Source: Psilocybe cubensis
Lineage: Eukaryota
Direction: 5' to 3'
Assembly (NCBI GenBank): GCA_017499595.2
Contig: CM039006.1
Location: 1,922,001 to 1,986,000 of the forward strand
Length of the DNA stretch: 64,000 nucleotides
Shown here: one piece after another, positions 1 to 53,613 of the stretch
How the letters are laid out: each line of letters opens with the position of its first letter
Position numbering within the stretch: position 1 is the stretch's first letter
Notes under the pieces: generated by a model
What the model saw: only the letters and a program-made list of their open reading frames with translations
The model's database searches: none
What the model was told of the DNA's origin: nothing
Program-made: the position numbers and the translations under genes

Positions 1-3000
1 TGGTGATGGTGGCTGTTCTATTTGTGGGGCCTCATGTGTGGAATCGTAAGGTGGTGTGGAAATATGACCATAATGGGCTGTCGCATTGAATTGAGAAGTT
101 CCCGAGTCATCTTGATACATTGAGTCATAATCGGAAGCGTAGAGACCGTGAGAGGAGTCCTGAGTCGAGTCATGTTCGCAGTTGGAGTCAGAGAAAGAGG
201 GTGCATCTTGTGAAGTGGATAAGTCCTCATTTGGGTTAGCAGATTCGTCCCGATTCAGAGATTGTTGCCTAGTAAGGATAGATAACTCGATCATGGAAGG
301 GGTAGGTGATGGATAGCGAAGGTCGTCCAATAATTCACCGGGTTCTAGATCTTCTTCAATTTCACCTTCTTCGGCATCCGGATTAGCTAAGGAGAGGTCG
401 TTGTGTGCTAACATTGTGTGGGGGGTCTTGTCGTAAATGGTATCCGTGAAGTAACGCCGGTCGTGCTGAGTATCAGGTGTCACAAGGAATTTCTGCTCAC
501 GTGTAGGATCTTTGACGTCATAGAAGGCAATGAAGGTCCCTTCGGGTCGTTCTAGAATGTCCACATAGTTGTCACGGGTCCATGGACGTCCCAAGAGTAT
601 ATCAAACTGGACTTTGTCGGATACATAGCAATGAGCACGCGTCCTGACTGTACCAATATCAAGTTGAACATTTCCAACGAATCCAAGCATGTGGGATTTG
701 CCGCCATGAATATCGACCATAACAATAGTATTCCGGCTGTCCATCGGCAACTTGACAATCTTCTTCCAAGCCTGTTCGCTTAGAATGTTCTGCGTAGATC
801 CACTGTCAATCAAGGCATTGAGTTCGTGACCATTACACATTAATGTGATTCGAAGAAGGGGCTCGTGAGCGCGAAGGGATTCGACTGAATTGGTCTCGTG
901 CATGTATTGAACAGGTACGTCCTTTTCGGCACTGCGAATGATGTCTAGAACTTCCTTATCGGAAAGCTTTAAGTTGCCGTTTGCCAATGAAGCTTTGAAT
1001 TCGTCGACAGTAAGGGTCTTGCCTTTGATGCTGTTGATAAGAAGGGTCCTAAGGTCCTTTGAAACTCCAAGTAGCTCGCCGAACGTCGCATTAACGGGTT
1101 GATTAAGGCATCGTCTGAGAATGGCCATAGTGTCGACAGTTTGGGATATGTCAGAGACACGTTTCTGAGGTGCTGCACGTGGCTTGGTAACTGATTTGCC
1201 TCGTTCTAGACTAGGAGTGACATCTTCCATGATTTGATCATCATCGGCCGGATCAAAAACCTCGTGTCGTTGGGCAGTCTCGGGATGTTCCGTTGGATTT
1301 GCCCTAATCGGGACATTGGGTTGAGCTTGTTTGACAGGAATTGATGGATTCATTTCGGCAGAAGGTTGATTAATTGACGGGATTGGGACAGGTTGAATGG
1401 AAGTGGAGCTAGGCACGTTGTTCGGCAATCCAGAGTTAGCCGGACGTTTAAGAATAGATGGGATCTGAGAAGAATCCTTAGCTTTACTCATTTCCGCTCG
1501 CTTCCCTTTCAGATACGCGGGTTCCGGAGGTACCACAGCGTCCATGACCTGTTTGCGTGCAGCACGTGTTCGCTTTTCAGTTGGGATTCGATTACCAGGA
1601 CCTGCCAGCGTAAACTCAAACTCGTCTTCTCCATCCCAGGTTCCAATGTCGTCCTCTTCTTCTTCTGCAACCATGGCTCTGTAGTTCTTGAACATCTGAC
1701 CATAATATGCTTCGGATACGGCTATGCTTGTGGTAGCAACTTGAGGAGGAGGAGGAGGAGGAGGCTGTTGTTGACGAAGGACTGCTTGTGCGATTGACTC
1801 TCCATTCTGGCGAATAATGCGGGATCCATCAGGGAAGACAACTCGATTGCTACTGTCTCTGGAGATGAGCTTGCGGTTTGTAAGATCAATGAGCGTCGGG
1901 CAGTTGTTGATTCCATGGCCTTGTTGGTGGCAACCATAGCAGATGATCTCGGATGTGGACTGACGTGGTGCTCGTGGTGCTGGAGGTGCTGACTGACTTG
2001 CGATTGGGACTGGCTGAGCTGGCTGTGCACTTGGATTCATAATGGCCGGAGCAATGAGCATGTTAGCAAGAGCGGGTTCCAACTTGATGGCGCGAAGATA
2101 ATAAATGGCGTACGAAGAATCATGGATGGTGAGCTTCGACATCTGCTTGATCAAGTTCTCCACTTCGTCGTCCTTGTGCGCTTGCTTCTCTTCCTTGTCT
2201 AGATCCTGAAAAATGCGCTTGGTCTCTTCCGGGGGATTGTATGGACGTTCACGGGCATCGCGTGTCTCAATGTTAGGAAACATCTCCTGTAAGTACTTCT
2301 TGATCTCGTCAAAGACTGATGAGCGCTCTGGATACGAATCCTTTGGAGGAATAAGAGACGTGAAGGGGCGTGCAGAAGGATTGTCAAAGATTCCAACGTC
2401 AAAGCGGTCTCGTTTAAAGATGATTTCAACTGCCTTGGTGACGTCTTCAATGGAAAAAGGTGAGGAGAGATCGATATGAGGATTAAAGACCATGATCTTG
2501 CTTTCGAGCGCAGGTCGGAGGGATTCATTGATTCCTAGCCAGAAGTATTGATTGTATTCCGTCTTGGATATCTTGTTGTTGTTGAGAAGCCAACCAGCGA
2601 TGCGAATGTATTGCTTCTGATACTCGCGGAAATCGTCGAGAGAGCGCATAGAAAGATTGGAGTGTTGGAAAGCATAAGCACGAAGAGTACTCAACGTGAA
2701 CTTCTGCGTCGTCCTAGCATGGTCAAAGATTTTGAGCATATCAGTCTTGAGTCGTTCCCATTGCTTGGCATGGTGGCTGGGTAAACCTTCAATGATTTCT
2801 CTGCTCTCTTGGTTGCAGCATTGAACCATGTATCGTACTTTGTCATTGTCGAGAGTGACATTGTACTGATCAAAAATGCGGTCGCAGTGATCCAAGAAGT
2901 TCTTGACGTCGACGTAAGATCCAGTGAATTTTGGAGCAGCACTAGATTTAGGAACAGGCATATCGACAGGAGTACGTTGGATGATGGTAGTAGCCATAGT

Positions 3001-3039
3001 GGGAGTAGAGGATGGAAGCGGATTGCCAGAATCAGTCAT
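1..3039 (-). CDS. gag: Gag-aspartic protease polyprotein of Gypsy copy A (partial, runs off the window)
   Basis: ATG at 3039 (MTDSGNPLPSS), same as ORF 29674..33558; CCHC knuckle CYGCHQQGHGINNC and protease motif ALIDSGS. Confidence 0.9.
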   Translation of the reverse strand, partial: MTDSGNPLPSSTPTMATTIIQRTPVDMPVPKSSAAPKFTGSYVDVKNFLDHCDRIFDQYNVTLDNDKVRYMVQCCNQESREIIEGLPSHHAKQWERLKTDMLKIFDHARTTQKFTLSTLRAYAFQHSNLSMRSLDDFREYQKQYIRIAGWLLNNNKISKTEYNQYFWLGINESLRPALESKIMVFNPHIDLSSPFSIEDVTKAVEIIFKRDRFDVGIFDNPSARPFTSLIPPKDSYPERSSVFDEIKKYLQEMFPNIETRDARERPYNPPEETKRIFQDLDKEEKQAHKDDEVENLIKQMSKLTIHDSSYAIYYLRAIKLEPALANMLIAPAIMNPSAQPAQPVPIASQSAPPAPRAPRQSTSEIICYGCHQQGHGINNCPTLIDLTNRKLISRDSSNRVVFPDGSRIIRQNGESIAQAVLRQQQPPPPPPPQVATTSIAVSEAYYGQMFKNYRAMVAEEEEDDIGTWDGEDEFEFTLAGPGNRIPTEKRTRAARKQVMDAVVPPEPAYLKGKRAEMSKAKDSSQIPSILKRPANSGLPNNVPSSTSIQPVPIPSINQPSAEMNPSIPVKQAQPNVPIRANPTEHPETAQRHEVFDPADDDQIMEDVTPSLERGKSVTKPRAAPQKRVSDISQTVDTMAILRRCLNQPVNATFGELLGVSKDLRTLLINSIKGKTLTVDEFKASLANGNLKLSDKEVLDIIRSAEKDVPVQYMHETNSVESLRAHEPLLRITLMCNGHELNALIDSGSTQNILSEQAWKKIVKLPMDSRNTIVMVDIHGGKSHMLGFVGNVQLDIGTVRTRAHCYVSDKVQFDILLGRPWTRDNYVDILERPEGTFIAFYDVKDPTREQKFLVTPDTQHDRRYFTDTIYDKTPHTMLAHNDLSLANPDAEEGEIEEDLEPGELLDDLRYPSPTPSMIELSILTRQQSLNRDESANPNEDLSTSQDAPSFSDSNCEHDSTQDSSHGLYASDYDSMYQDDSGTSQFNATAHYGHISTPPYDSTHEAPQIEQPPSP

Positions 3040-3214
3040 AGCGTAAACCAGTTACAGAGTCAGAAAGTGTTGCCTAGAATTGTTGCCTAGAGTTGCCTAG
3101 AGAATAGACCAGCGAAGCGAAGTAACCTGTAAAGAAAAAGAGTCGAAATGGATGGAATGGAAGTGATAAAGTGGTAGATTGCTGTGTTCCTAATACAAAA
3201 TCCTAATTAACCCT

Positions 3215-3232
3215 CCCTCGCGGTGGGCTCCA
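3215..3232 (-). other. Primer-binding site of Gypsy A
   Basis: TGGAGCCCACCGCGAG begins 2 nt inside the 5' LTR end (TGG complements tRNA CCA); the priming tRNA was not identified. Confidence 0.65.
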
Positions 3233-3234
3233 GA

Positions 3235-4863
3235 TGAAGATCGAAGTTTGTGATTGGTTATAAACTATATGTAATCCAACAAACACAAACCCCAGGGAAA
3301 GAGTGGTCCAGACTGGATAGGACGAAACCTTCTCCTAAGTTTCTTAAGGGAGGACGCTGCCTAGGATTTAAGTAGATTAGGATGGTGTGGATTGTGAAGG
3401 GTAACGAAAGCGAAATAGTAAGATGAGGATAACCGGGTCGTCTGGGTACGATAGTAAATAAGCCTTCCGAAAATGGGATGGAACCGTGGAATTGGATGGC
3501 GGGTGTATATGGAAAGCGTGAAGAAGATGCGTAGAATGCGTATGAGAAATCAATAAATGTGAATCTTAGAGGGGTTGTCTGAAGTGAGTGGGGAACGTTC
3601 CGAGGGGAGATAAGAAGATGACTAGGAGTCGGAATGTCGTTAACGGGCTGAATCTTGAAGAATGGTGAAAGTGTCTTTAAATTGACAATCTTTCTGAAGC
3701 TTGGAATGAAGCTATACATCGCAGGAGTATTGACTGAATCGAGGATGAAAGACTAAGTCTGTCTCGAATGAAATCGCTCCAGATGAGTTGACGGAGGGAA
3801 AGGATGTCTTGAATACACTCCTAACGGCGATGGTTGGAAGGTGTAGAAAGAGTAGGAGCGGTGACGGAGTGAATGGAGGAGAGGAAGTAGGGAAGTACTG
3901 GAGGTCTGGATAGAAGTTGGATATTCAACGCTGAGAAGAAGAGGCGTTGGATGAGGAGGATGACTGGTCTTGGATGAAATCCTCTCTTAATGGAAAGCGA
4001 GATGACTTCGGATGAATGGAAGTAAACTTGGTCTCGACGGAGGGTGGAACTGATGACTGAATTGGACTTGGGTTTGGGCTTGGCTTGAACTTGAGCTTGG
4101 AATTGAAATGAATCGATGTGGATTGACTTGAAATTGACTTGACTTGGATGAAAATTGACTTGCTTTGAAGAAAGTGGGGACTGGGTGTAACTTTCCTGTC
4201 ATTTCGTGTAATTCTACTACAGCTTTTATACTAAAAGCTACGTGAACGAAATACCAATCTAAGCTACTGAAAACCGAGTCATATACTGTACAAAGTGTCA
4301 AGAATGAGGCTACGCAAGTGTAACAATAAGCAAGAACAATAAGACATGTCAATATCGACACGACGACAGATAAGAAATGAATAGGATGAGTAAGAAAGAA
4401 GTGTATGACGAAGGTGAATGGTAATACAGATTAGATAAAAGAAGCAAGGATGAGTCAGAAAGCATAGAAGATTGGTAAGACAAAGACAATAAAAGCGCAA
4501 CAGACAATAGAAAAGATATAAATAAACACAAAAGGATGAGTAAGACAAACCAAAAATAAGTTGGAATGAGTAATCCGCAGCCTGACGCTGAGTAAGACCA
4601 TTGAATTGATAAAAATAGAGTTGACAGTCCGGCTGTGCAAGGCAGTGTAGAAAGCTATGCAGTTTGATGGTTGACTGATCCGTCGCATAGCCTTGATGAT
4701 CTGATGAAGTGACATGATCCGGAATAACGTGGCTCCCATGTGACAAGTGTTGATAAGATAAGATGTGTGGATGACTTATGGAAAGAATGACTGCTTGGGT
4801 TGAGGGCGTCGTGTGTAGATCCAAAATGAACATCTCATCTCCAATCAGGATTGGGGTATGATA
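3235..4863 (-). repeat. 5' LTR of Gypsy copy A (1629 bp)
   Basis: Nearly identical to 23901-25529 and 33754-35382; + strand ends TGAAGA...GTATGATA; TATAAAAG on the minus strand at 4230-4223. Confidence 0.95.
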
Positions 4864-4882: not shown

Positions 4883-7800
4883 ATGGCGAGGCCTCCGGTC
4901 GTACCTGTTATCACTCATCGCTCTCCCACCATTTCCCCTACTACCCGTTTTCACCAACCTTCTTCCCCGGCTTTGACACACTTGTCTGCTATTACACCTG
5001 GAGCTGCTGCTCAACAATTGCGGAACCCTGTTGCTATACCATTGCCCCCTAGTACCACATCACACAGCCAATCTACCGGATCGCGTCCGAGGGAGACTCC
5101 CCGACAGGCACCAGGACATGGAGGTGTGCCACCCACAGACCTTTCCCCCCCTCAATACTCCTCTCCGCCTTCTAGTAGTTCTCGATCTGGTGTATCTAGT
5201 GATCCTAGCTCTGGCGGTTCTTCTACCCTCTTTTCTTCGGACTACTTATTCTTAGAAAACCAATCTTCTTCGCGTTCTAGTACACATTCTGTTTCAAATT
5301 CACATGCCCGTATGCCTTCTACACCTGTTAACCATACAGGCTCTTTTTCTCTTTCTTCACCTTTCTCTCTTCTTTCTCGTCCCTCGCGGGATAATGCGCA
5401 TTCGATCCGGGAACCCACTCCTATCCGCTCTGTTACAAAGACTCAACCTGCGATACACAACTCTGCCACTCGACCACCAATTACTCCGCGCGTCCCTTCT
5501 CATGTCCATTTCCCTGGCGGTTACGCACCCTCGGCAAGACTATACCACGTCCCTGTTCACCAAAATCCTGTCTCGGTTTCTGCGTTACCTCCGTCCACGA
5601 AAGAAATTCCTGTCCTGACTGGTCGTGAGAATTGGACTGCCTGGAATAACGGTGTTACGTTGCTCATCACTTCATTGGGTTTATACGGTCACATTGCGGA
5701 CGATTGGCAAACTCACCCCAATGCGTTAACCGACCCTCTCCTGCTGCCCTCGTACCCGCCAGACCTGCTCCCCAACTACACAGACCAGGACCTTGCTTTG
5801 CACACTCGCTGGTGGGCACAAGACAACCAAGTCCTTTGGGTTCTAACGTCTCGTTTGTCAACAACAGTCTTAAGCAGCATCCCTACTGCTCTTCCTACAG
5901 CTGGACAACGTCGCTCTTCACGAGAGATCTATACCCATCTCCGGTCACTTTATAGCATTGGTGATTACCACTCTGCCATGTTGGTTGAGCAGAAACTGCG
6001 TTCTCTGCGGGTCCGTGTGGCTGGTACCTCTGGGGGTGTATCTTTGTCGGAATACATATCGACGTGGCGTGCATCTTACATCCAACTCTACGAAGCCGGC
6101 TATCCTCTGCCGCATCGTCAAGTCCTTCAGCTCCTGGTATGTGGCCTGCCTACGAACTCACTGGCTTTCATGCAAGTCCGGACATCGGTTTTCCTACAAC
6201 TTCGCAATTCTGACGACAACGCACTGCCCTCTTTTGATGAGATACTGGACACTATCCGCATTGTCGGCGATGCGCAGCATATGTCAACCACACTGCATCG
6301 TCCTGTTCCAAAATCCCCTTCTACCCGCAGTCGTCACCACTCGACCAACCCAGCACCACCACCTACAGGATCAGCAACATCTGTTCGACCTACATGTACT
6401 ACCTGTCAAGGATCTCATTTGACAGAAAACTGCTTCCAGCCCGGGGGTGCAATGGAAGGCCGGAAAGACAAGGTTTTGGCCAATCGGCGTTCACGCACTC
6501 CTGTTATGGCTCACGTCGCGGAGGTGGATACTGGTCCGGGGTTAAGTGATGAGATAGATACATTTGAAGTGGAACAGCAATCACCTGTAGTACAACAATT
6601 CGCCGCACTGTCCCTAGCTAGGCCCACATCCGCGCAATCCATTGAATTTTCTTCGTATTTCCCCTGCCCGATGCCAAATATCGCGTTAGCCGCACCTCTT
6701 GACTGGGTCCTCCTTGCTCTGTCAATATCCAACTACAATACCGCTCTTGATTCGGGATGTTCTATTCACCTGATTAAGGATCGCAGTCTATTCTGGACGT
6801 ACAACGAGCAAGAGCGTGTAATGGTGGGTACTGCAAACTGTGGAGTGATGGCTACCTGTGCCCGCGGCAGCGTCCGTATTCGGCTCCCTCTCACTGGAAA
6901 CGATGGGCGGACAATACATATTACTTGGATTCTGAAGGATTGTTTGCATGCACCGGAAGTACCATTCAACCTCATCTCCGTGGGTCAAATAGTTGAAGCC
7001 GGTGTTGCCTGTCGATTCGAACCAGGCGATGGTACGCCATATACTCGTGTCTGTTTCCCAGATAAGGGCCAGCTTGGTGGTCGACATATTGATGCCATGA
7101 TCAAACACCGCATCTCTTTCCTCCACCTCAACTTTCTCCCACCACCTACGAGTTCATCACCATCGCATATCGCTTGCCCAGCTTTGCCTATATCAAACCT
7201 GACACCAGAACTGTGGCATCGTTGTTTAGGTCACCCAGGTCATGACACAACACGAACCGTCTTAACTAAACACCTACAAAAAGGAACTGACTGGGCGGGT
7301 GACTCTCAATTACAATTCTGCGTTGCTTGTATCCTTGGGAAGGCACCACAAACCCCTTATGTGACCAATAAACATCGTGCCGCCCTCCCATGTGAGCTCA
7401 TCCACATGGACACCTGCGGTCCTTTTCCTGTTGTGACGTCGACTCAAGCCAAATATTATTTGGCCATTCTGGATGACTGTACCAACATGGGTGGGATCGG
7501 TTTGATGACGGCGAGGAATAATGCTTCTGCGATATGGCGTCGTACCACGGCAAAATGGGAGACGGCAACGGACACTAAGATTAAGGCAATCCGTATGGAT
7601 GGTGCTGCGGAGTTTGTTGGCGGGGATCTGCGTAAACTCCTGGAAGAACGCGGTATCGCTATTCAGCAGACTGCGCCATATGCCCATCAACAAAATGGCA
7701 AGATTGAACGTTATATACGTACCATTTCTGACACCGCCGCTGCTCTGATGGCCGACGCTGGTCTTCCTCCTTCATTCTGGGGGTGGGCGGTCCTAGCTGC

Positions 7801-10174
7801 GGTCTACCTGAGGAACAGGATACCCACTAAGACTTTGCCAGCTGGTACAAGCCCATACGAGCAGATGCAACGCGTCAAACCTGACCTTACCCTGTTGCGT
7901 GTATGGGGGTGTCGTTGTTTTGCATACCTGCCGGACGAACTACGAGGCAAAGGTAGCCCACTTCGATATGAAGGGATCTTTGTTGGTTACGAAGAAGACT
8001 GCTTAGGCTGGAATGTCATGGACCTTCAGGGTAAGGTGCGTTTCACACAAGATGTTATCTTCGTTGAAGATGAGCGTGGACACCTTACTTCCCCACGTAA
8101 CCGTAAACCATCCACCCCTGCACCCAAGGCATCTACCACAAACGCCCCTCTTCACATTCCCTCATCCCGCGTTCTGCGATCTCAAGCTAAGACTACCCCT
8201 GTTGTGCACACTTCACTCGTTACTCATAGACCCGACCCTACTGCTCCTATCGCCCCCTTGTCTTGCCTCTCAGAAGTTGTCCGTAACGTACATAATCTTT
8301 CTCACACTTTTATTCATCCTTTACAGACATTTGATTCACTTTCTCTTTTTGCTGACTTGAACAATATTGATTCTTTTGTAAATACATGCAAATCGGACAA
8401 CGTAGTACATGATGTTTTCTCACTTTCTGATTTCATTCCCGACGATAACCTCCCTTCTCTACACCATTCCTTTCTTTCTCACTCCCAATTCCCCTACCGC
8501 TTCTGCATTGCCGACTACAACCCCGACAAGCCACCCAAATCTTACCAGGAAGCCATGGCTCGCCCTGACCGGGACATCTGGAAGGCGGCAATGCAACGCG
8601 AATACGACAGCCTGCATAAACGTGGTGCATTTGAGCGTACGACACCTATTCCCCACGGATACAAGGCTATTGGAGTAGTATGGCGATTCTCATTCAAGTA
8701 CCATCCTGACAGTTCGATTCGTCGTGGGGAAGAAAAGGCACGTTTAGTTGCTCAAGGCTTTCACCAGCGGTATGGCATCAATTATATCCACACATACGCA
8801 CCTGTCTGCAAACCGTCCAGTGCCAAACTAATTCTTGCCCATGCAGCCCATAACGACCTCGAGATAATGAGCTTCGATGTCAAAACAGCATTCCTACATG
8901 CAAAGCTGTCATACTCCATCTACGTCAAGCAGATTCCTGGCTTCCCTGAGGCTGACTCCAACACGGTGTTAAGACTTCTGGTCGCGCTCTACGGCCTTAG
9001 GCAATCCGCACATGAGTTCTATCAATACTTCATGAAGCTACTCCTGCGCATTGGCCTTTCCCGCTGTGAGGTCGATCAATCGGTCTTTGTTGGTTACTGG
9101 AACAGCCCACCACATCCATCTATACCTGCTTTACCTAACAGCTCCCGACTCTTCCTGATCATACCGATACATGTCGATGACGGCCTGGTTGTGACCAATT
9201 CGATCCCTCTCTACAATTGGTTCATTCAACAACTGTTGCCTGACCTTGAAGTCATCGATATGGGACCTGTATCCATGTACTTAGGCTGTCGTATTACCCG
9301 CGATCGACCCCGCCGGAAACTCTGGATGTCTCAGAAACCAATGATATATGACCTTCTACAGGCGTGGGATATGTTAGAATGCACACTGACCAAGGTTCCT
9401 TTGGCCTACCCGCTCCATAAACTCCTACCGGTGCCCCACAACTCATTATCCCATATCCCGGACGGCAATATTAAAACTGATTTCCAGCGGATCGTGGGTA
9501 GCCTCATATATATCGCTATTTCCACTAGACCCGACATTGCCTACGCCGCAATGGCCCTTGGACAATACAACGCGAATCCAACGCGGGCGCACTTGCTGGC
9601 GGCGAAGGGTGTTATGCGGTATTTGGCCGGTACGATGGATTGGGGCCTGGAGTATGCGGTTGATGAGGCAGTTACTCCCAACTCGGTTGTCCCATACATT
9701 CAGGGATGCGTCTTATCTGATGCTGATTGGGCCTCCGATGAATCCAACCGTAAGAGTATATCAGGGTACTGTTTTTTCTATCAGGGTTGTCTGGTCTCCT
9801 GGTCTGCGTCTAAACAGCGTATTGTGGCGTCTTCCTCAACGGAGGCAGAATACTACTCACTTTCCCATGCACTTCGTGAAGCGATTTGGCTCCGCCTCTT
9901 CCTGACGTCGCTTTCGCTACCAGTTCCTACACCTTTTCCTATGCTTGGGGACAACAGAAGCACCCTCTGTATCGCCAACTCTGACGGCATATCAAATAGG
10001 ACCAAGCATATCGATGTGCGCTATCACCTCATTCGGGAAAAGATTGCTGACGGGACTTTCGAAACGCAATGGGTACCAACGGGCGATATGACGGCTGACA
10101 TTTTCACCAAACCACTTCCTTTTCCGATATTCTCAAAACATCGCTCATCCTTAGGTGTCATTCGTATTCCTTGA
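4883..10174 (+). CDS. Copia Gag-Pol polyprotein, 1763 aa
   Basis: Zn knuckle CTTCQGSHLTENC; PR LDSGCSIH; pre-integrase LWHRCLGH; integrase IHMDTCGP/RMDGAAEF/QNGKIER; RT KARLVAQGF, FDVKTAFL, LYGLRQ, HVDDGL; RNase H SDADWA, TEAEY, KHIDVRYH. Confidence 0.95.
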   Translation: MARPPVVPVITHRSPTISPTTRFHQPSSPALTHLSAITPGAAAQQLRNPVAIPLPPSTTSHSQSTGSRPRETPRQAPGHGGVPPTDLSPPQYSSPPSSSSRSGVSSDPSSGGSSTLFSSDYLFLENQSSSRSSTHSVSNSHARMPSTPVNHTGSFSLSSPFSLLSRPSRDNAHSIREPTPIRSVTKTQPAIHNSATRPPITPRVPSHVHFPGGYAPSARLYHVPVHQNPVSVSALPPSTKEIPVLTGRENWTAWNNGVTLLITSLGLYGHIADDWQTHPNALTDPLLLPSYPPDLLPNYTDQDLALHTRWWAQDNQVLWVLTSRLSTTVLSSIPTALPTAGQRRSSREIYTHLRSLYSIGDYHSAMLVEQKLRSLRVRVAGTSGGVSLSEYISTWRASYIQLYEAGYPLPHRQVLQLLVCGLPTNSLAFMQVRTSVFLQLRNSDDNALPSFDEILDTIRIVGDAQHMSTTLHRPVPKSPSTRSRHHSTNPAPPPTGSATSVRPTCTTCQGSHLTENCFQPGGAMEGRKDKVLANRRSRTPVMAHVAEVDTGPGLSDEIDTFEVEQQSPVVQQFAALSLARPTSAQSIEFSSYFPCPMPNIALAAPLDWVLLALSISNYNTALDSGCSIHLIKDRSLFWTYNEQERVMVGTANCGVMATCARGSVRIRLPLTGNDGRTIHITWILKDCLHAPEVPFNLISVGQIVEAGVACRFEPGDGTPYTRVCFPDKGQLGGRHIDAMIKHRISFLHLNFLPPPTSSSPSHIACPALPISNLTPELWHRCLGHPGHDTTRTVLTKHLQKGTDWAGDSQLQFCVACILGKAPQTPYVTNKHRAALPCELIHMDTCGPFPVVTSTQAKYYLAILDDCTNMGGIGLMTARNNASAIWRRTTAKWETATDTKIKAIRMDGAAEFVGGDLRKLLEERGIAIQQTAPYAHQQNGKIERYIRTISDTAAALMADAGLPPSFWGWAVLAAVYLRNRIPTKTLPAGTSPYEQMQRVKPDLTLLRVWGCRCFAYLPDELRGKGSPLRYEGIFVGYEEDCLGWNVMDLQGKVRFTQDVIFVEDERGHLTSPRNRKPSTPAPKASTTNAPLHIPSSRVLRSQAKTTPVVHTSLVTHRPDPTAPIAPLSCLSEVVRNVHNLSHTFIHPLQTFDSLSLFADLNNIDSFVNTCKSDNVVHDVFSLSDFIPDDNLPSLHHSFLSHSQFPYRFCIADYNPDKPPKSYQEAMARPDRDIWKAAMQREYDSLHKRGAFERTTPIPHGYKAIGVVWRFSFKYHPDSSIRRGEEKARLVAQGFHQRYGINYIHTYAPVCKPSSAKLILAHAAHNDLEIMSFDVKTAFLHAKLSYSIYVKQIPGFPEADSNTVLRLLVALYGLRQSAHEFYQYFMKLLLRIGLSRCEVDQSVFVGYWNSPPHPSIPALPNSSRLFLIIPIHVDDGLVVTNSIPLYNWFIQQLLPDLEVIDMGPVSMYLGCRITRDRPRRKLWMSQKPMIYDLLQAWDMLECTLTKVPLAYPLHKLLPVPHNSLSHIPDGNIKTDFQRIVGSLIYIAISTRPDIAYAAMALGQYNANPTRAHLLAAKGVMRYLAGTMDWGLEYAVDEAVTPNSVVPYIQGCVLSDADWASDESNRKSISGYCFFYQGCLVSWSASKQRIVASSSTEAEYYSLSHALREAIWLRLFLTSLSLPVPTPFPMLGDNRSTLCIANSDGISNRTKHIDVRYHLIREKIADGTFETQWVPTGDMTADIFTKPLPFPIFSKHRSSLGVIRIP

Positions 10175-10351
10175 CTTCCTTTTCTTATGTTCTTATTTCT
10201 ACTGCGGACACATATCTTCTTTTCATGGACACCCTTCTTCTTTTCATGGCTACACCTTTACCTCTTTCCTTTCTTCTTTATTTTATCCTTTTTCTTCTCT
10301 CTCTCTCTGTCTTCTTGCATGCATTCATTCGCTCTCATACATGTGGGGGTG

Positions 10352-10596
10352 TGTTAGACTCCTCATGACCTACCCTTAGACACGTGACTCACTAGTATAC
10401 ATTTGGTTTCTTTCCTTTCTCTCCCTTTCCTCAGTCGTTCATCCAAGATGTTCACTGAGGTGAGATTTAACCTACTTATGACCTACCAGCTACTTACATA
10501 GAACCTATGTAGCTTCGTGTCATTGCATAGGTACCAATCCCATAGTCGTTCATCCAAGATGTTCACTGAGCTTCGTGTCATTGCATAGGTCTGACA
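10352..10596 (+). repeat. Copia 3' LTR (245 bp) with an internal intron-containing/spliced duplication
   Basis: Follows the PPT; TG...CA ends with a 7/8 terminal inverted match; internal direct repeats 10433-10459/10544-10570 and 10513-10530/10571-10588. Confidence 0.85.
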
Positions 10597-12307
10597 ATTT
10601 ATAGCAGCCATTTCCCAATAATCACACACTTTGGAAATACTAACACAATAAAATTTGATTGACTACAATGGAGGGTACATAGAAACGAGTACAGATGACG
10701 ATAATGGTCAACCAGACCCTGGGAGACTCCGTGTGACCAGGTCACAATAACTCGTGTGATTTGAGATCTGGATCTGGATGTGTCACAGTGAGTCATGGTA
10801 AGCAAAATGCAAAATGTATGCGCATTTGATGCGCATATACTCACAATTAATTCAACATGCATGTCCGTAAGACTGTAATCTATACTTGATGGAAAGATGT
10901 ATCAAAGTCGAAGGAGGAGCAAAGACATAAAAGAAATTGTCAGTTGGGTTGCACTGGCAGTTGGGGATAATTGATTTACCTTGTGAGTTTAACTTTCAGG
11001 CCTATGTCATGTGCATGGGACACCAGAAGATTGTGTTGTCAGAACCAGGAGACATGAGAGTGAGGAAAGAAAGGAATTCGGGGCATGTCTCGAGTTATTA
11101 TACACATAACATTGATTCAATCTCCGACTTAATTTGTAATCAGACCTGGGAGGCTCTTTGTCGATGGCTAGACAGAAACGGTGGACTTTGCCTTAAATTG
11201 ACATTGTGCGATGATACTGTGAATAAATTTTTACATTGAAAAATCATTTTTTGCGCACTCTAAGGCCGGTAATCATTTGAGTGTATGTCAAGTTGAACTC
11301 AAGCTTTTCTTTTTCTTTTTATTTATGATCAATCATTCACTCTAAGTTCTATGGCAAACCAATAATTGAGAAATAAGTGTAAGTATGTGAAATATTTAGT
11401 AATAACTTTTGGGCTCTACAAATGTTTTTGGAGCCTCCAAATGCCTTCTAAATGTTTTGGGTGCCTCCAAATTTTACCCAAATGTTTTGTGTGACATAAT
11501 TATGTCACATGAATCATTGGCCTTCCTTAAAAGGCAGCAAAGGCATTTTGGGACTTGGTCACTTTTGCCGATGTCCATGGGAGTCGAAAGGTCATTAATC
11601 GCCATGATACTCACACGCCAAAGACATAGCAAGTCATTGGCCGCTTATACAGTATAACAACGCAGAATGTGAACATCTTTGCGCGGGTAACTCTCTAAAA
11701 GAATTGGAGTAGGGGGGTCAACTTTCATCAAATCACCCCACATGATACTAATACTGTTAATCCAGCATTAGAGCCTCGAATACATGAGATGTGTACAACA
11801 TCTGGCTTCCAAAACTTAGTCGTGTAAATACCGCAGATTACCGCAAACATGATGGGTCTGTCAACTTATACGACTCCATATAATCTAAACATTGGATACG
11901 TTACATGATGTCATTTCTGGCTATAATCGCAACCTTGTCGAGTATCCCCGGCGCCTAACGGTCGGCGTCTCAATGTGTGCTAAATATAGGCACAGGAGGT
12001 GCTATTAATATTCAAGCTTCAAGCCTCACTAGTATACAACGTTAGAGAGCACTGTAGAACCGAATATTGAAATGAGAACAGAGAATAGTACGCCTTCCGA
12101 TGTTCGTTGAATGAATATCAGGATTCTAAGATCCCTCTTTTAAAAGTTTTGTTTGGCTGCATCTAATCTATTATCTAATCAGACGTTGATCGCAACGAGT
12201 CATATTTGTCAGCCATCCCCTATTTGGCTTTGCTTTGGTTGCTCAAGTTCAGCGACACACTATCCTTCTTTTTCTTTTCCTTTCATCCTGCACACTCAGG
12301 CCGCCAT

Positions 12308-12868: not shown

Positions 12869-13186
12869 CACATAAGACAGTTTATTTATAACGTACATTA
12901 CCTAAGATTTAATAATAAGGATATTACGTGAGACACGGTGGATTTACTTCCGCTACCTAATTAGGAGATTAGCATGATGTACGTGTGATTTAGCCTGGCA
13001 AATCATAGCGTACATGACGTGCCATTTAGCGCTAAATGGAGCCGCCGGGTGGCCTGCGGGATCCGCGCGTCTACCTACACGGAAGAAACACGGGCCGGAA
13101 ATGAGCCGGACGGGTCCATTTGCATCCCGTGTATTGCAAGCAGACGGATCCGCTTGACCCGTGTTGTGCTGTCAGACGGACCCATT
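12869..13186 (+). repeat. Left terminal inverted repeat (318 bp, starts CACATAAGAC)
   Basis: Reverse complement of 39713-40030 except 12974 A versus G. Confidence 0.95.
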
Positions 13187-13264: not shown

Positions 13265-14733
13265 TTATTCATCTCTACCGGTATACAAATGCTTTTCCAA
13301 ACTCGATTCAATCCCTGCCAGCCCAGCGTCAATTTCCTCCAGCGCATTATAAGTCAGAATTTCTGACTGCAGCTGATGCAGGCGGAGGTTCTTAAACGTT
13401 GTGACCTTGCTGTCATAACTATTGTCGCCGACGGAACTGTCAATTATTTGGTCGTATGTTGCCCGTAGCTGCTGCTCGGTATAATTCTAAAATAGTTGTC
13501 AGTATCTAGTGCTTGGTAATATCTAAGTGCATACATATAGAAAAGGAGGGTTAAAATATGCCGTCTGATCTGTCACATCCTCGAACTCAATGTCAGACTG
13601 GGTGGGAGGCGAACCGGGGTAGCCGCCCATGGGATCAAACCTGCCGTAGGTTCGAAAATAAGGGTTTTGAAGGAGCAGGTGGCATGCTTCAGGGGGTGGA
13701 GAATAGCGACCTTGCTTCCTCTCAGAGGAAATAGCTGGACGAGAGTCCATAATGATTTTGTCGACGACAGACGTGTATGAAACATGTGCTGCCATCAACG
13801 GCAGAGCCACATCATCCCGGATGACAGGCATAGGTGGAGGATCCAGGGTATCTGGAATAACAGGCATAGGGGGAGGAGCCAGGGTAGGTGGAATGACAGG
13901 CATAGGGGGAGGAGCTAGGTTATCTGGAATGATTGGCATTGGCGGCGGAGCCGTGTCGTTCCGGATGACAGGCATTGGCGGCGGAGCCGTGTCGTTCCGG
14001 ATGACAGGCATTGGCGGCGGAGCCGTGTCGTTCCGGATGACAGGCATTGGCGGCGGAGCCGTGTCATTCCGGATGACTGGCATAGGGGGTGGAGCCAGGT
14101 TAGCTGGAATGACAGGCATAGGGGGTGGAGCCAGGTTAGCTGGAATGACAGGCATAGGGGGTGGAGCCAGGTTAGCTGGAATGACAGGCATAGGGGGTGG
14201 AGCCAGGTTAGCTGGAATTACTGGCATTGGCGGCGGAGCCAGGTTAGCTGGAATTACTGGCATTGGCGGCGGAGCCAGGTCTTTCCGGATGACTGGCATA
14301 GGGGGCGGAGCCAGGTTAGATGAAATGACTGGCATAGGGGGAGGAGCCAGGTTATCTGGAATAACAGGCATAGGGGGTGGAGCCAGGTTATCTGGAATGA
14401 CTGGCATTGGCGGCGGAGCCAGGTCATCCGTCCTTGCTGTGCGTTTGCTTTCCTTAGAGTTGCTAATATTTGAAGACATTGCTGATGCTCAGAAATCAAT
14501 TAAAATTTACTTGAATTAATGCCATTAGTCTTACATTTTATAGGTTTTACGGGAGGAGGTTCCTTCAGTTTTTCAAGAAGCCTGGTAAGATTGTTGAGAC
14601 TGGTGTAGTCAATGGGGGAATTTTTGCTAGAGGTGGGAATAAAGTTGTAGGAGGACATACAGTCCAGAAAGTGCAACTGGGTGGGCTTGTTTATATATCT
14701 CACGGAATACAATACTATCCGAGGATTCTCCAT
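13265..14733 (-). CDS. KDZ cargo: proline-rich tandem-repeat protein of unknown function (multi-exon; start uncertain)
   Basis: ORFs 14500..14733 and 13523..14479 plus a last exon ...LEKHLYTGRDE* ending at 13265; 17 x 12-aa xxxAPPPMPVIx units. Confidence 0.6.
13817..14428 (-). repeat. Coding minisatellite, 17 x 36 bp
   Basis: Head-to-tail 36-nt units with blocks of sub-variants (ANL x5, NDT x4). Confidence 0.95.
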
Positions 14734-14962: not shown

Positions 14963-17534
14963 ATGGCCTCTTCATCTTCCACCACCGCCACCTTCGCCCA
15001 ACGCCTTGCTGACTGGGAAAAAACCTTTACAGAGTGCTACCGCAATGGCGAAAGCGCGTTCAACGCTCAGTTGGAGCAGCTCTACAGGGACTTGGTGAGT
15101 AATCAATATCCCTTGAGCATAAGACTTACTGAACAAAAAAAATTCATCCAAATAGGTTCCACTGTGTCAAGAACACGTCAGGGACGCGGCCAACTTCCGC
15201 CTCGTGGATTATGTCGCAAGCCCTGTCGTGTATTCATACAAGACCAGCCAGGGCAAGGACGGCAAGCAGGTAGCAAGGTTCGAGGTCGACTGGGCAAATT
15301 TGCATCATCAAGTCGCAAATTTCAAGGCATACCAGCAAGGCCAGGAGGCACAGAGGAAGAGGAGGGAGGAGGAAGAGCAAGAGAAGAGGAGGGAGAAGGA
15401 GGAGCAAGAGGAGGAGGAGAGGCAGAGGGTGGAGGAGAGGAGGAAGAGGGAGGTGAGGAGGAAGAGGGAGGAGAAGAAGAAGAGGGAGGAGGAAGAGGAG
15501 AGGCAGAGGGAGGAGGAGGAGGAGAGGCAGAGGGAGGAGGAAAGGAGGAAGAGGGAGGAAGAGAAGCAGAAGGTGGAGGAGAGGAGAAAGGATGAGAGGA
15601 GGAAGAGGGAGCAGGAGAGGAGGACCAGGGAGCAGGAGAAGCAGAAGGCGGAGGAGAGGAGGAAGAGGGAGCAGGAGCAGGAGCAGGAGCAGGAGACAGA
15701 CGAGGAGAGGAACAAGGAGGAGACGGAGAAGAGACGGGCCGAGAAGGGCAAGGGCAAGGCAGTCGAACCCCCGGTGGAAGACGGACCCGTGACAGACGCC
15801 CACAAAGACAAGGGCAAACGGAAAGCGGCGGACCCCGTGGAGTCCATTCAGTTGGCTCCAGCGGATTACAGGGGCCCACGGACAAAGAAGGGGGAAATTA
15901 TTCCCCACATTACCGCCTCCAACATGCCCGGTCACCCAGCGTACAGGGAGAAGCTGGAAAGATTGGCAAAGTCCAAGCAGGGGAAATTCAGGAGCAAGGC
16001 GATCATAGGAAGCCACACGAACGAAGACGCGGACGCGGACGTCGACGAGGACGACGAAGGCGATAACAAAGGGGCACCGCCTACCACCCCCACTGCCACC
16101 CCCACCCGGAAGATGCGCACGCGTTCCGTAAAGAAGGACACCGAGGACGATGTCCCCCCCATCAGGAAGGCGCGGTTGAGATCCCAGAAAGTGCGCCAGG
16201 TGCCAGAGGGGATGGTGGACATGGTGGAAAGGTGCACGGCATGCATCAAATTCAAGGTGCCATGCTATGTCAAGGGGGAGACAGGCACTGAGCCTCTCGT
16301 CCCCGTGAAGCACCAATCTTGCGAGTCTTGCAAGTCTCGCAAGATCCACTGCAGCTTCTACCCGGGGCGCAACACCTTCGTGGGTCAATTTTTGACGACG
16401 CCACTGGGAAGCTATGGGGAGGCGTTGAAGTTGGAGGAGGGAGAAGATGTTCCGGCGAAGGGGAAGGCCGGGGAAGGGTCGTTCCCCGAGGATGTGGGAG
16501 AACTGCTTGTGCAGCTCTTTGAGCGCCAAGGCAGAATCATGGAACGGCTGGACGGGTTATCCGCGTCCATGACGGCGATTAATGCACGGATTGCGACGTT
16601 TGCCGAGACAAACTTGGCGGTGGAGAACAGGATGAAGAGCATCGAGGACGGCATCCAAGAGGTGAAGGCCGAATGGACCATGGCCAAAGAACAAGTGGCA
16701 GGAAGCACCTCGCTTTCCGTCACGATGTTCAACGACATCACCAAGAGGATCAACCACGTCCGAGATGTGGTCGACGATTTGCTGGAGCAGGATGAACAAA
16801 GGAATCCCGCCCCCAAACAGGCAGCAGGACCCTCCAAGATGGAGGTCAAACAAGAATTGGGTCCGTCGCGGACCCGTGAACCCACCTCTGTGCCACAATC
16901 CCCAAGCGCACCACCACCGCCAGCACCCCTCCCTTCCCCACCTCCACCTCCAGCAGCACCCATTCTTCCTTCCCCTCCTCCACCACCGCCAGCACCTGTC
17001 CTCCCTTCCCCTCCCCCACCTCCACCCGCACCCGTCCTCCCTGCCGTGTCTGCGCCACCAACAGCGCTATTCTTGCCCGGTTCGACTCCGGAAGCGCCTT
17101 CGCCCCCCCCAGCTGGCCGACCCTCGCTCCCACCGGTACCGCCCATCCTTTCCCTGTCTCCACCACCCCCTCTCCCAGCTCCACGTCCTCGAAGTTTGAC
17201 GTCAAAGGCCGCACCGTTGTCAAAGGGTGCACCATCGTCAAAGGCCGCGCCATCGTCAAAGGCCGGCCCATCCTCAAAGGCTAAGCCATTGTCAAAGGCT
17301 AAGCCATCCTCCAAGGCTGGGCCATCCGGGAATGGACACTCATCGGAGTTGTCTGATCCCTCGGACAGCGACGAGGTTGAAATTGTGGAGGAGGAGGATG
17401 TTGAGATCGTGGCGTCCACGCTGCCCGCGTCGAACATAGCCACAAAGACAAGGGCTGGACGAAAGCGAAAGGCGGAAACGACTCTGGCTGAAGCATCGCG
17501 CTCGCCCAAAAAATCCAAGGCCCAAAAAAAGTAG
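14963..17534 (+). CDS. KDZ cargo: Zn(II)2Cys6-like protein with an E/R/K charged helix, coiled coil and Pro-rich tail (about 836 aa, 2 exons)
   Basis: Exon 14963-15094, GT-AG intron 15095-15155, exon 15156-17534 in frame; CTAC-x6-C-x18-CESC-x6-C; basic C-terminal NLS-like RKRK. Confidence 0.8.
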
Positions 17535-23900: not shown

Positions 23901-25529
23901 TGAAGATCGAAGTTTGTGATTGGTTATAAACTATATGTAATCCAACAAACACAAACCCCAGGGAAAGAGTGGTCCAGACTGGATAGGACGAAACCTTCTC
24001 CTAAGTTTCTTAAGGGAGGACGCTGCCTAGGATTTAAGTAGATTAGGATGGTGTGGATTGTGAAGGGTAACGAAAGCGAAATAGTAAGATGAGGATAACC
24101 GGGTCGTCTGGGTACGATAGTAAATAAGCCTTCCGAAAATGGGATGGAACCGTGGAATTGGATGGCGGGTGTATATAGAAAGCGTGAAGAAGATGCGTAG
24201 AATGCATATGAGAAATCAATAAATGTGAATCTTAGAGGGGTTGTCTGAAGTGAGTGGGGAACGTTCCGAGGGGAGATAAGAAGATGAATAGGAGTCGGAA
24301 TGTCGTTAACGGGCTGAATCTTGAAGAATGGTGAAAGTGTCTTTAAATTGACAATCTTTCTGAAGCTTGGAATGAAGCTATACGTCGCAGGAGTATTGAC
24401 TGAATCGAGGATGAAAGACTAAGTCTGTCTCGAATGAAATCGCTCCAGATGAGTTGACGGAGGGAAAGGATGTCTTGAATACACTCCTAACGGCGATGGT
24501 TGGAAGGTGTAGAAAGAGTAGGAGCGGTAACGGAGTGAATGGAGGAGAGGAAGTAGGGAAGTACTGGAGGTCTGGATAGAAGTTGGATATTCAACGCTGA
24601 GAAGAAGAGGCGTTGGATGAGGAGGATGACTGGTCTTGGATGAAATCCTCTCTTAATGGAAAGCGAGATGACTTCGGATGAATGGAAGTAAACTTGGTCT
24701 CGACGGAGGGTGGAACTGATGACTGAATTGGACTTGAGTTTGGGCTTGGCTTGAACTTGAGCTTGGAATTGAAATGAATCGATGTGGATTGACTTGAAAT
24801 TGACTTGACTTGGATGAAAATTGACTTGCTTTGAAGAAAGTGGGGACTGGGTGTAACTTTCCTGTCATTTCGTGTAATTCTACTACAGCTTTTATACTAA
24901 AAGCTACGTGAACGAAATACCAATCTAAGCTACTGAAAACCGAGTCATATACTGTACAAAGTGTCAAGAATAAGGCTACGCAAGTGTAACAATAAGCAAG
25001 AACAATAAGACATGTCAATATCGACACGACGACAGATAAGAAATGAATAGGATGAGTAAGAAAGAAGTGTATGACGAAGGTGAATGGTAATACAGATTAG
25101 ATAAAAGAAGCAAGGATGAGTCAGAAAGCATAGAAGATTGGTAAGACAAAGACAATAAAAGCGCAACAGACAATAGAAAAGATATAAATAAACACAAAAG
25201 GATGAGTAAGACAAACCAAAAATAAGTTGGAATGAGTAATCCGCAGCCTGACGCTGAGTAAGACCATTGAATTGATAAAAATAGAGTTGACAGTCCGGCT
25301 GTGCAAGGCAGTGTAGAAAGCTATGCAGTTTGATGGTTGACTGATCCGTCGCATAGCCTTGATGATCTGATGAAGTGACATGATCCGGAATAACGTGGCT
25401 CCCATGTGACAAGTGTTGATAAAATAAGATGTGTGGATGACTTATGGAAAGAATGACTGCTTGGGTTGAGGGCGTCGTGTGTAGATCCAAAATGAACATC
25501 TCATCTCCAATCAGGATTGGGGTATGATA
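23901..25529 (-). repeat. 3' LTR of Gypsy B
   Basis: Matches 33754-35382 with 9 substitutions seen; preceded on the minus strand by the purine-rich GGGACGGA (PPT-like). Confidence 0.95.
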
Positions 25530-25587
25530 TCCGTCCCAAACTTGAGAAATCAACCGTCCCCGGTTGCGGAAGGAAGGGGGGGATAGA

Positions 25588-28500
25588 TTAGAAATCGTCC
25601 ATATCGTCGCTCCATGTGTCTTTATCTTCCTCACTCTCGTGTCCAAGTTCTCTGATCATCCGGTCTAGCTGAGGTCGAGGAATGACTGAACCGTCTCGTG
25701 GAAAATAGCGAAGAAGTCGGAAAGCAGCTACGCCTTGAGCCAGTTGCGTACCATTAAGTTCTCTAAGCACATATGATCCTCCTCGTGTCTGTCGTACAAC
25801 TTTATAAGGTCCAAGGTATCGTGGCTTGTGCTTGCAATTCATCTCCTTCTCGACTTGACTGTTCCTAACGAGGACTAGATCACCAAACTTGAAGCTTTCT
25901 TGTCGAAGACGTCGAGCAAATCGTCGTTCAAAAGTAGCTTTGGATTGAAGTCGTGATTGTTTCAGAACGTCGGCTATGTTGGCTAAGTCTTCATCTTGTT
26001 TCATGAGTTGTCGAACACGGAGAGCTAGGAGATCTTCGGAACTCATTCCTTGTCGGAATCCATCAACTAGAAATGTGGCTTCAAGGAGATCGAATGGAAG
26101 AACAGGATGAACACCATGCATGACGTAGAAAGGGGAATGTCCAGTAGAGCGTCGAGTAATGCATTTGTCGGAGAAGAGTGTGTGATGAACGTACTGTGGC
26201 CAGTCTAGAGGTCGGTCGCCGCAAGCTTTGAGAATGGATTCACGGAAGTCAATGTGACCACGTTCAATAGATCCATTGGCTTTAGAGTTGTAAGGAGAAA
26301 TGCGAACTTGAGGAATGCCGTACTTTTCCATCAAAAGACTGAAAGCGCCAGAGACTTCTACTCCATTGTCCGTGCGTACAATAGCAATAGCACCATATCG
26401 GCATATGACTTCTTCCCAAAAGAAAGTGGCCAGCTCTTCGGAACGTAAAGACTTGAGGGCACGTCCTTCAGGTGCACGTGATAAGTCGTCTCGGGCTAGG
26501 ACTACGTATCGGAAGCGTCCAGACTTGGGCATGTACATGACGTCGACATTGATGATAGTGAAGATAGTTGGGGTAGCTGTGATAGTGATAGGAACTTCGC
26601 TTTTCTTGGTGGATCTGATCTGACATTCATGGCAAGTAGCGAGATGATGCTTGATATCCTGAAAAAGAAATGGCCAGAAAAACCGAATGCGAATAACTCC
26701 AAACACACCGTATACTCCTCGATGTCCGAGTTCTTCATGAGCTTGAGTAAGAATGAGACGTCGCTTGTCTGGATCTAGAATAACCAAGAGTGGAGGTCTT
26801 CCTTGTCGTCGTCGATAGAGTTGATCATCTTTGAGATAGTACTGAGTAGCGCGAGCAAGGAATCGTCGTCGGGACTGCAAATTGGGAAAAGGGGGTATAG
26901 TTTGGTCTGTAAGAAATTGAAGAATTTGTCGAAGTGTCCGTTCTTGAGAAGAAGAAGAAGCAATAAAAGAAGGAAGCGAGATAGAGTCATATGATGGCAT
27001 AGAAGAGGGAGTAAAAAGAAAAGTAGGGAAAAATTTGACCGTATTAAGAAGAGCAATATCGTCGAGCCAGTCATCGTCTTCTTGAGGTTCTTCTAACTCT
27101 TCAGAAGTTGGTTGTCGCCTTGAAAGTCCATCAGGTCCACGATGATTACCGGCCTTTACATGGATGAGCTTGAAGTCAAAGAGAAGAATGCCTTGTATCC
27201 ATTGATTCATACTAGCACTAGGCTGCAAGTCAGGCTGATTGAGCATGCCTTTGATGTACTTGGCGTCGACTTCAACGTAGAGGTTCTTGACTCCAATAAG
27301 ATAGAGGCGGAATTCTCGAAGAGCACGGAAAAGACCATATAACTCAAGCTTGGGCTGACTGTATCGTGCTTCTCGTGGATTAAGTGAGATAGAACCATAG
27401 CGGACAGGTCGTCGGATGCCTTCTTTGTCAAGCTGATAGAGAATAATACCAATAGCAATGTGAGAAGTGTCCACGGCAAGAATAACTGGGCGATCGGATG
27501 AATAGTCAATAGAAGTGAGAACAGGAGGATTGGAAATGATTTCTTTGAGAGTTTGGAAAGAGTCTTCTCGTTGTTGAGTCCAGACAAAGGGTTCGTCCTT
27601 ACGATAGAGTTCTGTGAGTGGTCGGACAAGGGCTGAGTAATTTCTGATCCAAACACGCATTGTTCCGCATAGACCTAGAAAGGATCGGATGTCGTGAACA
27701 GACTTTGGTCGTGGCCAATCAGTGACTTTCTGTATCTTGCTCTGATCGGGTAGTCGTCCATCCGGAGTGCATAACTGTCCAAGGATAAGAACTTTAGGCT
27801 GAGCGAGCTGAGTCTTTGGTCCAGAAAATGTAGCACCAGCACATCCCATGCGGTGCATAACTCGATGAACATCTTGAGCGTGTTCCCAGACAAATCGTCG
27901 TATTCCTGGATTTTCTGGAAGTGTTTCTGGATTGCCGTCCTCGTCTAAGTACTGTGTTGGAGGGCCTTTGATAGGAACATCGTCGATAAAGACATTGGCT
28001 ACGTGAGGGATCTCGTCACGAAGGATGAAGGTTGTACAGGCTTGAAATTCCGCTACTGCATTCGTATATCCCATAGGCATTGAAGTAAGTCGAAGAGGTC
28101 CAATAGGCGACTGGAATGTGGTAAGATCTCGGCTCATAGGATGGATTTTGCGTGCGTCATATCCCCAATATAAGTCAAAGACCGTGTAAATAGAATGACC
28201 AGCAAAGGGAACCACAAAGTCGTCAAGAACTGGAGGAACTCCTGCGTCGCGATAGGAAATAGAGTTAAGAATCTGCAGATCATGAACTAGACGGATAGCA
28301 CCAGATGTCTTCTTCTTGACCCAGAAAATTGGAGAGCGATACGGAGCTTGGCTTGGTTCGTATACTCCAGCGTCTATCTTTTCACGTAAGAGACTGATAA
28401 CTTGATCCTTGATGCCGGGTGGAATAGGAATATTTCGGACTACCCAGGGCTCGTGATCCTCAACAGGAAAGATGTATGGAGAGAAGTATTCTTCAGAAAA

Positions 28501-29658: not shown

Positions 29659-29673
29659 GCACCGTCCAGATAG

Positions 29674-33558: not shown

Positions 33559-33733
33559 AGCGTAAACCAGTTACAGAGTCAGAAAGTGTTGCCTAGAATT
33601 GTTGCCTAGAGTTGCCTAGAAAATAGACCAGCGAAGCGAAGTAACCTGTAAAGAAAAAGAGTCGAAATGGATGGAATGGAAGTGATAAAGTGGTAGATTG
33701 CTGTGTTCCTAATACAAAATCCTAATTAACCCT

Positions 33734-33751
33734 CCCTCGCGGTGGGCTCCA
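33734..33751 (-). other. Primer-binding site of Gypsy B
   Basis: TGGAGCCCACCGCGAG 2 nt downstream of the 5' LTR. Confidence 0.65.
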
Positions 33752-33753
33752 GA

Positions 33754-39712: not shown

Positions 39713-40030
39713 AATGGGTCCGTCTGACAGCACAACACGGGTCAAGCGGATCCGTCTGCTTGCAATACACGGGATGCAAATGGACCCGTCCGGCTCATTT
39801 CCGGCCCGTGTTTCTTCCGTGTAGGTAGACGCGCGGATCCCGCAGGCCACCCGGCGGCTCCATTTAGCGCTAAATGGCACGTCATGTACGCTATGATTTG
39901 CCAGGCTAAATCACACGTACATCACGCTAATCTCCTAATTAGGTAGCGGAAGTAAATCCACCGTGTCTCACGTAATATCCTTATTATTAAATCTTAGGTA
40001 ATGTACGTTATAAATAAACTGTCTTATGTG
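39713..40030 (-). repeat. Right terminal inverted repeat (318 bp)
   Basis: Reverse complement of 12869-13186; followed by TSD GTTACAA. Confidence 0.95.
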
Positions 40031-50923: not shown

Positions 50924-50995
50924 TCTCTGCTAGTATATCGGTTAGTACACGCGCCTGTCACGCGCGAAAGCTGGGTTCGACTCCCAGGCGGAGAG
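50924..50995 (+). tRNA. tRNA-Asp(GTC)
   Basis: Cloverleaf with TCTCTGC/GCGGAGA acceptor, CGCGC-CTGTCAC-GCGCG anticodon arm, GGTTCGACT T-loop, T-run downstream. Confidence 0.95.
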
Positions 50996-53541: not shown

Positions 53542-53613
53542 CTCTCCGCCTGGGAGTCGAACCCAGCTTTCGCGCGTGACAGGCGCGTGTACTAACCGAT
53601 ATACTAGCAGAGA
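53542..53613 (-). tRNA. tRNA-Asp(GTC), identical to 50924-50995
   Basis: Exact reverse complement of the first copy; A-run at 53527-53532 gives a minus-strand terminator. Confidence 0.95.

Follow-up and report, generated by a model that had tools for sequence, protein, structure and literature searches.

Organization of the locus

The left part of the analysed window, a 64-kb stretch of Psilocybe cubensis DNA, is occupied by two LTR retrotransposons, one of which has inserted into the other (Table 1). The intact gag-pol ORF of the outer, Ty1/Copia element encodes the Pfam domains Pol_BBD, gag_pre-integrs, rve, SH3_retrovirus and RVT_2; in the 1763-aa product gag_pre-integrs is found at residues 761-820, rve at 836-933 and RVT_2 at 1256-1507, i.e. 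the integrase precedes a reverse transcriptase of the RVT_2 type, which is the order found in Copia. The LTR, which is the 3' one of the element, begins 178 nt past the gag-pol stop codon, and its ends are nearly inverted copies of each other (TGTTAGAC at the start and GTCTGACA at the end, matching at 7 of 8 positions, with TG...CA termini). The domain order, the run of G residues directly before the repeat and the TG...CA ends together bear out the label of "Copia LTR" given to this repeat in an earlier note based on the sequence alone.

A search of 5.8 billion proteins retrieved the nearest relatives of the gag-pol protein at 53% identity (1775-1785 aa), and all seven matches with a named organism come from Agaricales: Lyophyllum, Hypsizygus (two matches), Armillaria, Candolleomyces (two matches) and Gymnopilus. 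The C-terminus of pol gave one weak match among metagenome contigs (47% over 44 residues; L001) and none among viral contigs, whether used as a single query or as a 13-protein alignment, while a 21-nt piece of the leader segment E1 (Table 1) had no exact match in the metagenome contigs.

The Copia element is interrupted 20 nt upstream of its ATG by a nested Ty3/Gypsy copy, so that its leader and 5' LTR lie beyond the start of the window. A Copia contig from independent data (X7, record 8) extends 420 nt beyond 4864 with sequence unlike that of the window. A complete copy of the Ty3/Gypsy element is present on the minus strand at 23901-35382; it is 11.5 kb long, has LTRs of 1.63 kb and a CCGC target-site duplication, carries two long ORFs (protease/DUF4100 and RNase H/integrase), and is 99.9% identical to the nested copy. 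In raw 151-nt genomic reads from another study (X11) the end of the Ty3/Gypsy LTR is covered to a depth of about 1090, against about 50 for single-copy sequence, and we therefore regard the family as high-copy and recently active.

On the other side of the Copia element, a host gene lies tail-to-tail with it on the minus strand, and is represented at 10669-11000 in two possible RNA runs (X13 and X14). Further into the window there are imperfect tandem arrays at 13727-14518 and 15325-15753, one with a 36-nt period and the other with periods of 9, 18 and 21 nt, which probably belong to the coding parts of host genes. Two other repeat pairs were noted: inverted copies of a 318-nt sequence (12869-13186 and 39713-40030) that are 99.7% identical and 26.5 kb apart, and a 78-nt repeat (98.7% identical) that encloses the only tRNA genes of the window, namely a pair of oppositely oriented tRNA-Asp(GTC) genes separated by 2.5 kb (50924-50995 on the plus strand and 53542-53613 on the minus strand).

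Table 1. Retroelement features discussed in the text (positions are those of the window)
Feature	Position	Length	Strand	Remarks
Nested Ty3/Gypsy copy	1-4863		-	its 1.63-kb LTR is 3235-4863
Intact Ty1/Copia gag-pol ORF	4883-10174	1763 aa	+	ORF listing and Pfam
Polypurine-tract-like GTGGGGG	10343-10349		+	putative role, from its position directly before the LTR
Copia LTR	10352-10596	245 nt	+	direct reading of the window
Presumed core promoter, end of U3	10395-10432		+	function predicted from sequence
TATA-like GTATACAT	10395-10402		+	CT-rich tract from here to 10432
E1, first leader exon (putative)	10433-10459	27 nt	+	contains ATG at 10448-10450
Intron-like segment	10460-10512	53 nt	+	GTGAGA...TGTAG
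E2, second leader exon (putative)	10513-10530	18 nt	+	last bases TAG, then GT
Spacer	10531-10543	13 nt	+	between E2 and joined E1E2
Joined E1E2, intron-less	10544-10588	45 nt	+	45/45 identical to E1+E2
LTR terminus GTCTGACA	10589-10596		+	direct reading

Structure of the Copia LTR

The LTR contains two short segments, E1 and E2, which are separated by a 53-nt intron-like sequence and which recur, after a 13-nt spacer, fused to each other without a base lost or gained. This succession of segments, the TATA-like box with its CT-rich tract and the exact joined copy had all been described in the earlier note, and its coordinates proved correct to the base. In a mismatch-tolerant pattern search of the window, E1 and E2 were each found twice and the joined 45-mer once, in all cases with 0 mismatches; the same searches returned no match at all in any of 100 shuffled sequences. 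We also scanned both strands of the window for the general architecture in which a sequence A is followed, after a gap of 30-300 nt, by a sequence B, with the joined AB nearby. The LTR is the sole case outside tandem arrays; the scan additionally flags the two coding-type arrays at 13.8-14.4 kb and 15.3-15.7 kb. A chance repeat is ruled out by the shuffles together with this window-wide scan.

Since AG is shared, three registers are possible for the border between the exons and the 53-nt insert, and GT..AG ends result in one of them. E1 directly adjoins the CT tract and begins 31 nt past the TATA-like box, which fits a transcript start near 10433. No second copy of the LTR is present within the 64-kb window, and the 13-nt spacer has no meaningful match there either (three matches at up to 2 mismatches, a number equalled by 23 of the 100 shuffles).

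Several smaller features of the LTR deserve mention. A CACGTG palindrome of the E-box type is located in U3 at 10381-10386, 10 nt upstream of the TATA-like box. By eye, the spliced leader would encode a 9-codon uORF (MFTELRVIA; 10448-10459 joined to 10513-10530), which is repeated uninterrupted at 10559-10588 and whose stop codon is formed by the last three bases of E2; the 53-nt segment is positioned in phase 0 of this uORF, and the unspliced version runs into a stop codon inside the segment.

The 53-nt segment as a candidate intron

The segment at 10460-10512 starts with a GTGAGA donor with G at +5, ends with TAG, and contains a CTTAC motif whose A is located 16 nt before the 3' end. For comparison with introns of the host we used two RNA-backed introns of the neighboring minus-strand gene: 10774-10844 (71 nt), which reads GTGAGT...CAG and also contains CTTAC, and 10880-10979, which reads GTAAAT...TAG and has G at +5. 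The RNA backing comes from X13 and X14, runs that are only guessed to be RNA, with one contig each, confined to 10669-11000; of the 14 runs listed, none is recorded as RNA for the LTR. Upstream of the 71-nt intron the two runs show alternative removals, 10880-10979 in X14 and 10925-10977 in X13. Other plausible host introns, which were picked by eye since profiles of ORF junctions (639, then 28) consisted mostly of false ones, are 45-55 nt long and have G at +5.

The proposal that the 53-nt segment resembles an intron agrees with what is seen locally: its donor matches those of nearby introns, its length would fit the introns picked by eye, and E1E2 is its exact spliced form. By our own reasoning, a random 53-nt indel would combine GT..AG ends with R-A-G at +3 to +5 in fewer than about 1 in 2,000 cases. 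We consider the interpretation of this part of the LTR as an intron accompanied by its spliced copy to be well supported at the level of sequence.

The inner part of the segment, 10471-10486, resembles the start of U3 at 10359-10374 (14 of 16 positions, a likeness that 0.25% of 2000 shuffles reach). A regulatory motif present twice, or the remnant of an older duplication, could account for it.

Independent sequence data

The arrangement is present in data obtained independently of the window. An X7 contig of 246 nt (record 10) covers exactly 10352-10596 with one other letter, and the internal X7 contig that adjoins the LTR ends 30 nt inside it, at 10381. The depth of the LTR contig is 35.7, compared with 21.6-23.3 for the internal contigs, and assembly breaks exactly at both LTR borders; both observations are as expected for at least two collinear LTR copies in different contexts, which they suggest to exist. 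The X11 reads span 10397-10607 at about 56x (the single-copy flank is at about 50x), and no joint or indel is listed for them inside 10424-10596 at the 5% threshold. The independent contig and the reads rule out an assembly artefact. The X11 LTR may be the same insertion as that of the window, because it adjoins the same flank; for X7, no contig on the LTR flank is among those listed, which proves nothing.

Both datasets also contain variants of the LTR. At least two X7 contigs have loose ends before 10429, with a different U3, and are alignable from there on, and seven X11 reads form a joint from 10359 to 10424, at which U3 likewise differs and the match resumes just before E1. These variants fit chimeric LTRs with an R that would begin at the first E1. 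Rapid evolution of the CT tract could produce the same picture. One further X7 contig, with a depth of 45.4 (two-copy), aligns to E1 plus GT, i.e. up to 10461, and then again from 10544. Either a divergent member of the family with both copies of E1 or a form with an 82-nt deletion may lie behind this.

The X7 sequences diverge from the Copia element of the window by about 1.9% (104 mismatches over 5349 aligned nt), and since 0 differences in 45 nt are unremarkable at such divergence, the perfect identity of the two E1E2 copies is uninformative. In the region 4911-8075 the differences between X11 and the window are dominated by transitions in one direction (C>T 114, G>A 76, T>C 32, A>G 18), while the skew is weaker between X7 and the window (C>T 32, G>A 24, T>C 25, A>G 14). 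The Copia copy of X11 looks as if it had undergone cytosine-to-thymine mutation, as in methylation-driven deamination or a RIP-like process. On 8287-10185 there are no X11 reads at 90% likeness.

Possible origin of the spliced copy

We favor, tentatively and at slightly less than even confidence, the reading in which the LTR arrangement is the inherited product of an aberrant strand transfer. The LTR, belonging to an Agaricales-type Copia family, would be transcribed from about 10433, and its leader would carry a genuine 53-nt spliceosomal intron. The stretch 10544-10596, i.e. E1E2 followed by GTCTGACA, would be the spliced leader in DNA form, starting at the leader's 5' end and reaching the LTR terminus, as expected of minus-strand strong-stop DNA templated by spliced RNA. 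At some time in the past, during a single round of reverse transcription, such strong-stop DNA would have missed the homologous E1 near the template's 3' end, pairing with which would have erased the intron, and would have landed instead 13 nt downstream of the unspliced E2. The product, U3-E1-intron-E2-spacer-E1E2-U5, would have been inherited since. Because the copy starts at the predicted transcription start and reaches the LTR terminus, it is better seen as a product of reverse transcription than as a DNA duplication.

An ordinary replication cycle on unspliced RNA, with the first E1 as the beginning of R, would be consistent with this arrangement. As such a cycle would suffice, the spliced copy could be regarded as a fossil of the start and the splice, not as a required device. 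That unspliced RNA would be the default template is suggested by the BARE paper, according to which the replication of spliced RNA is something that retrotransposons have to avoid (PMC3735527). Several points weigh against the fossil interpretation: the landing site requires a non-homologous transfer, no source of the 13-nt spacer was identified in the window, and a poly(A) remnant is absent between the spacer and the E1E2 copy. The X7 copies are no proof of a later successful cycle, because the accident would mark both LTRs of one insertion.

The earlier note had gone further and proposed that the introns are regenerated in every cycle. In this design the transcript would start at the first E1, two GT..AG segments (10460-10512 and 10531-10588) would be spliced from the 5' leader, and the strong-stop DNA, consisting of E1E2-U5, would pair with the pre-spliced E1E2, the true R, in an unspliced 3' LTR, so that an intron-bearing LTR would be rebuilt each time. 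The claim about the second segment holds in part: it does have GT...AG ends, and removal of both segments does yield E1E2-GTCTGACA, identical to 10544-10596; its donor, GTACCA, has C at +5, unlike the local introns. Its GT..AG ends are moreover automatic: in either copy (the 22-nt repeat D7) AG forms the end of E2 and GT comes next, so that the poor donor of the supposed second intron is accompanied by ends that the duplication itself has supplied. Gene expression in Agaricomycetes, including mRNA accumulation, is reported to depend on introns. The Penelope study shows that a leader intron can be needed for retroelement expression (PMC2377424). The design would also provide the strong-stop DNA with a full-length homologous landing site, the 45-nt R, and the module from E1 to the LTR end is retained in the X7 and X11 sequences in which U3 differs; the X7 contig aligned to 10461 and again from 10544 could be a diverged member with both E1 copies. 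The identity of the E1E2 copies at 45 of 45 positions is equally what the design predicts. Nevertheless, the 3' LTR contains the identical, self-contained intron of 53 nt, no feature of the sequence exempts it from splicing, and if spliced it would be lost from the progeny; U5 would be only 8 nt long; and no special device would be required for unspliced RNA to carry this LTR through an ordinary cycle. We therefore hold the self-regenerating design to be possible but unlikely, and less economical than an inherited accident of strand transfer. Similarly unlikely is the proposal that the duplication is functional in the sense that, in a fungus whose mRNA levels are raised by introns, the pre-spliced E1E2 serves as R for the first strand transfer, with the spliced, well-expressed leader RNA as template and with the U3 side of the 3' LTR providing the intron anew.

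There are three further explanations. Transcription might start at or near the second copy (10544), in which case R would be E1E2 and the upstream E1-intron-E2-spacer a silent U3 relic of an older leader. Start sites in fungi can lie well downstream of the TATA box, a spacing that would accommodate such a start, and the layout of the LTR would be standard, needing no splicing and explaining the stable inheritance. Yet the TATA-like box and CT tract directly precede the first E1, with nothing comparable 30-40 nt before 10544, and X11 keeps 10424-10543 as well as 10544-10596 while U3 further upstream is unalignable, which makes a start at the second copy improbable in our view. Alternatively, after a 58-nt tandem duplication, the first copy might have received an unrelated insertion of 53 nt that only resembles an intron, or a 111-nt duplication might have been followed by deletions. 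Duplications and indels are common in LTRs, there is AG microhomology at the junction, and the likeness of the inner part of the 53-nt segment to the start of U3 (14/16; 0.25% of 2000 shuffles) means that it could be duplicated U3; against this, GT..AG ends, the GTGAG donor, a length usual for introns and a CTTAC close to the 3' end would all have to coincide, and the position of the copy's left border at the predicted start site would be left unexplained. We judge events at the DNA level alone to be very improbable. Least credible of all is a capture from the host, in which E1-intron-E2 and its spliced form would derive from a host gene and its mRNA, not from the leader of the element: retroelements occasionally transduce host sequences and E1E2 does contain a tiny ORF, but the 64-kb window holds no further copy of E1 or E2, and both occupy a leader position after the promoter-like tract.

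Comparison with known systems

LTR retrotransposons are expected to lose introns that are spliced from their genomic RNA, and to our knowledge introns inside LTRs are hardly documented. Among the papers returned by a full-text literature search, none describes in its title or abstract an LTR that contains an intron together with its own spliced copy. In retroviruses of the HTLV-1/BLV type the major splice donor is located inside R and the replicated genome is the unspliced RNA. These viruses resemble the P. cubensis LTR in that the end of an exon and the start of an intron fall within the transcribed part of the LTR, but their intron ends far outside it, and the LTR is not known to include a complete intron or a processed copy. 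Intron-less DNA made through spliced RNA is well known from processed retrocopies, from intron loss mediated by reverse transcriptase and from the loss of marker introns in Ty1 transposition. The exact intron-less copy described here would be of the same kind; it differs in being 45-53 nt long, only 13 nt away from its intron-bearing source, and part of the terminal repeat of a mobile element.

Two further systems are comparable. BARE1 and Drosophila copia are, like our element, members of the Copia superfamily, and their transcripts are spliced, as is predicted for the leader here: according to the part of the BARE paper considered here, they produce a spliced sub-genomic RNA and have separate RNA pools for translation and replication, and spliced DNA copies of BARE1 are absent from the barley genome (PMC3735527). 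Their intron is however in the coding region, at the gag/pol border, as far as that part of the paper describes it, while in the P. cubensis element the LTR itself contains DNA of the spliced form. Penelope of Drosophila virilis, in the portion of its description used here, has a 75-bp leader intron 46 bp past the transcription start, in the terminal-repeat/promoter region, and deletion of this intron abolishes reporter expression without removing the RNA (PMC2377424). Penelope thus resembles the P. cubensis LTR, with its putative leader intron, in being a retroelement whose leader retains a short spliceosomal intron; it does not belong to the LTR retrotransposons and has no strong-stop transfers, and a spliced copy beside the intron is not reported in that portion of the paper (PMC2377424).

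Implications

The LTR of this Copia element holds what appears to be a complete leader intron together with a DNA record of its splicing and reverse transcription, and from DNA alone the spliced copy marks both the likely start of the transcript and the likely splice junction. It thereby provides a concrete case for studying how retroelements reconcile expression that depends on introns with replication that erases them. If the copy is functional, it would represent a new replication trick, by which a retroelement could retain an intron in a manner not described before; if it is not, it would be a rare and instructive by-product of strand transfer.
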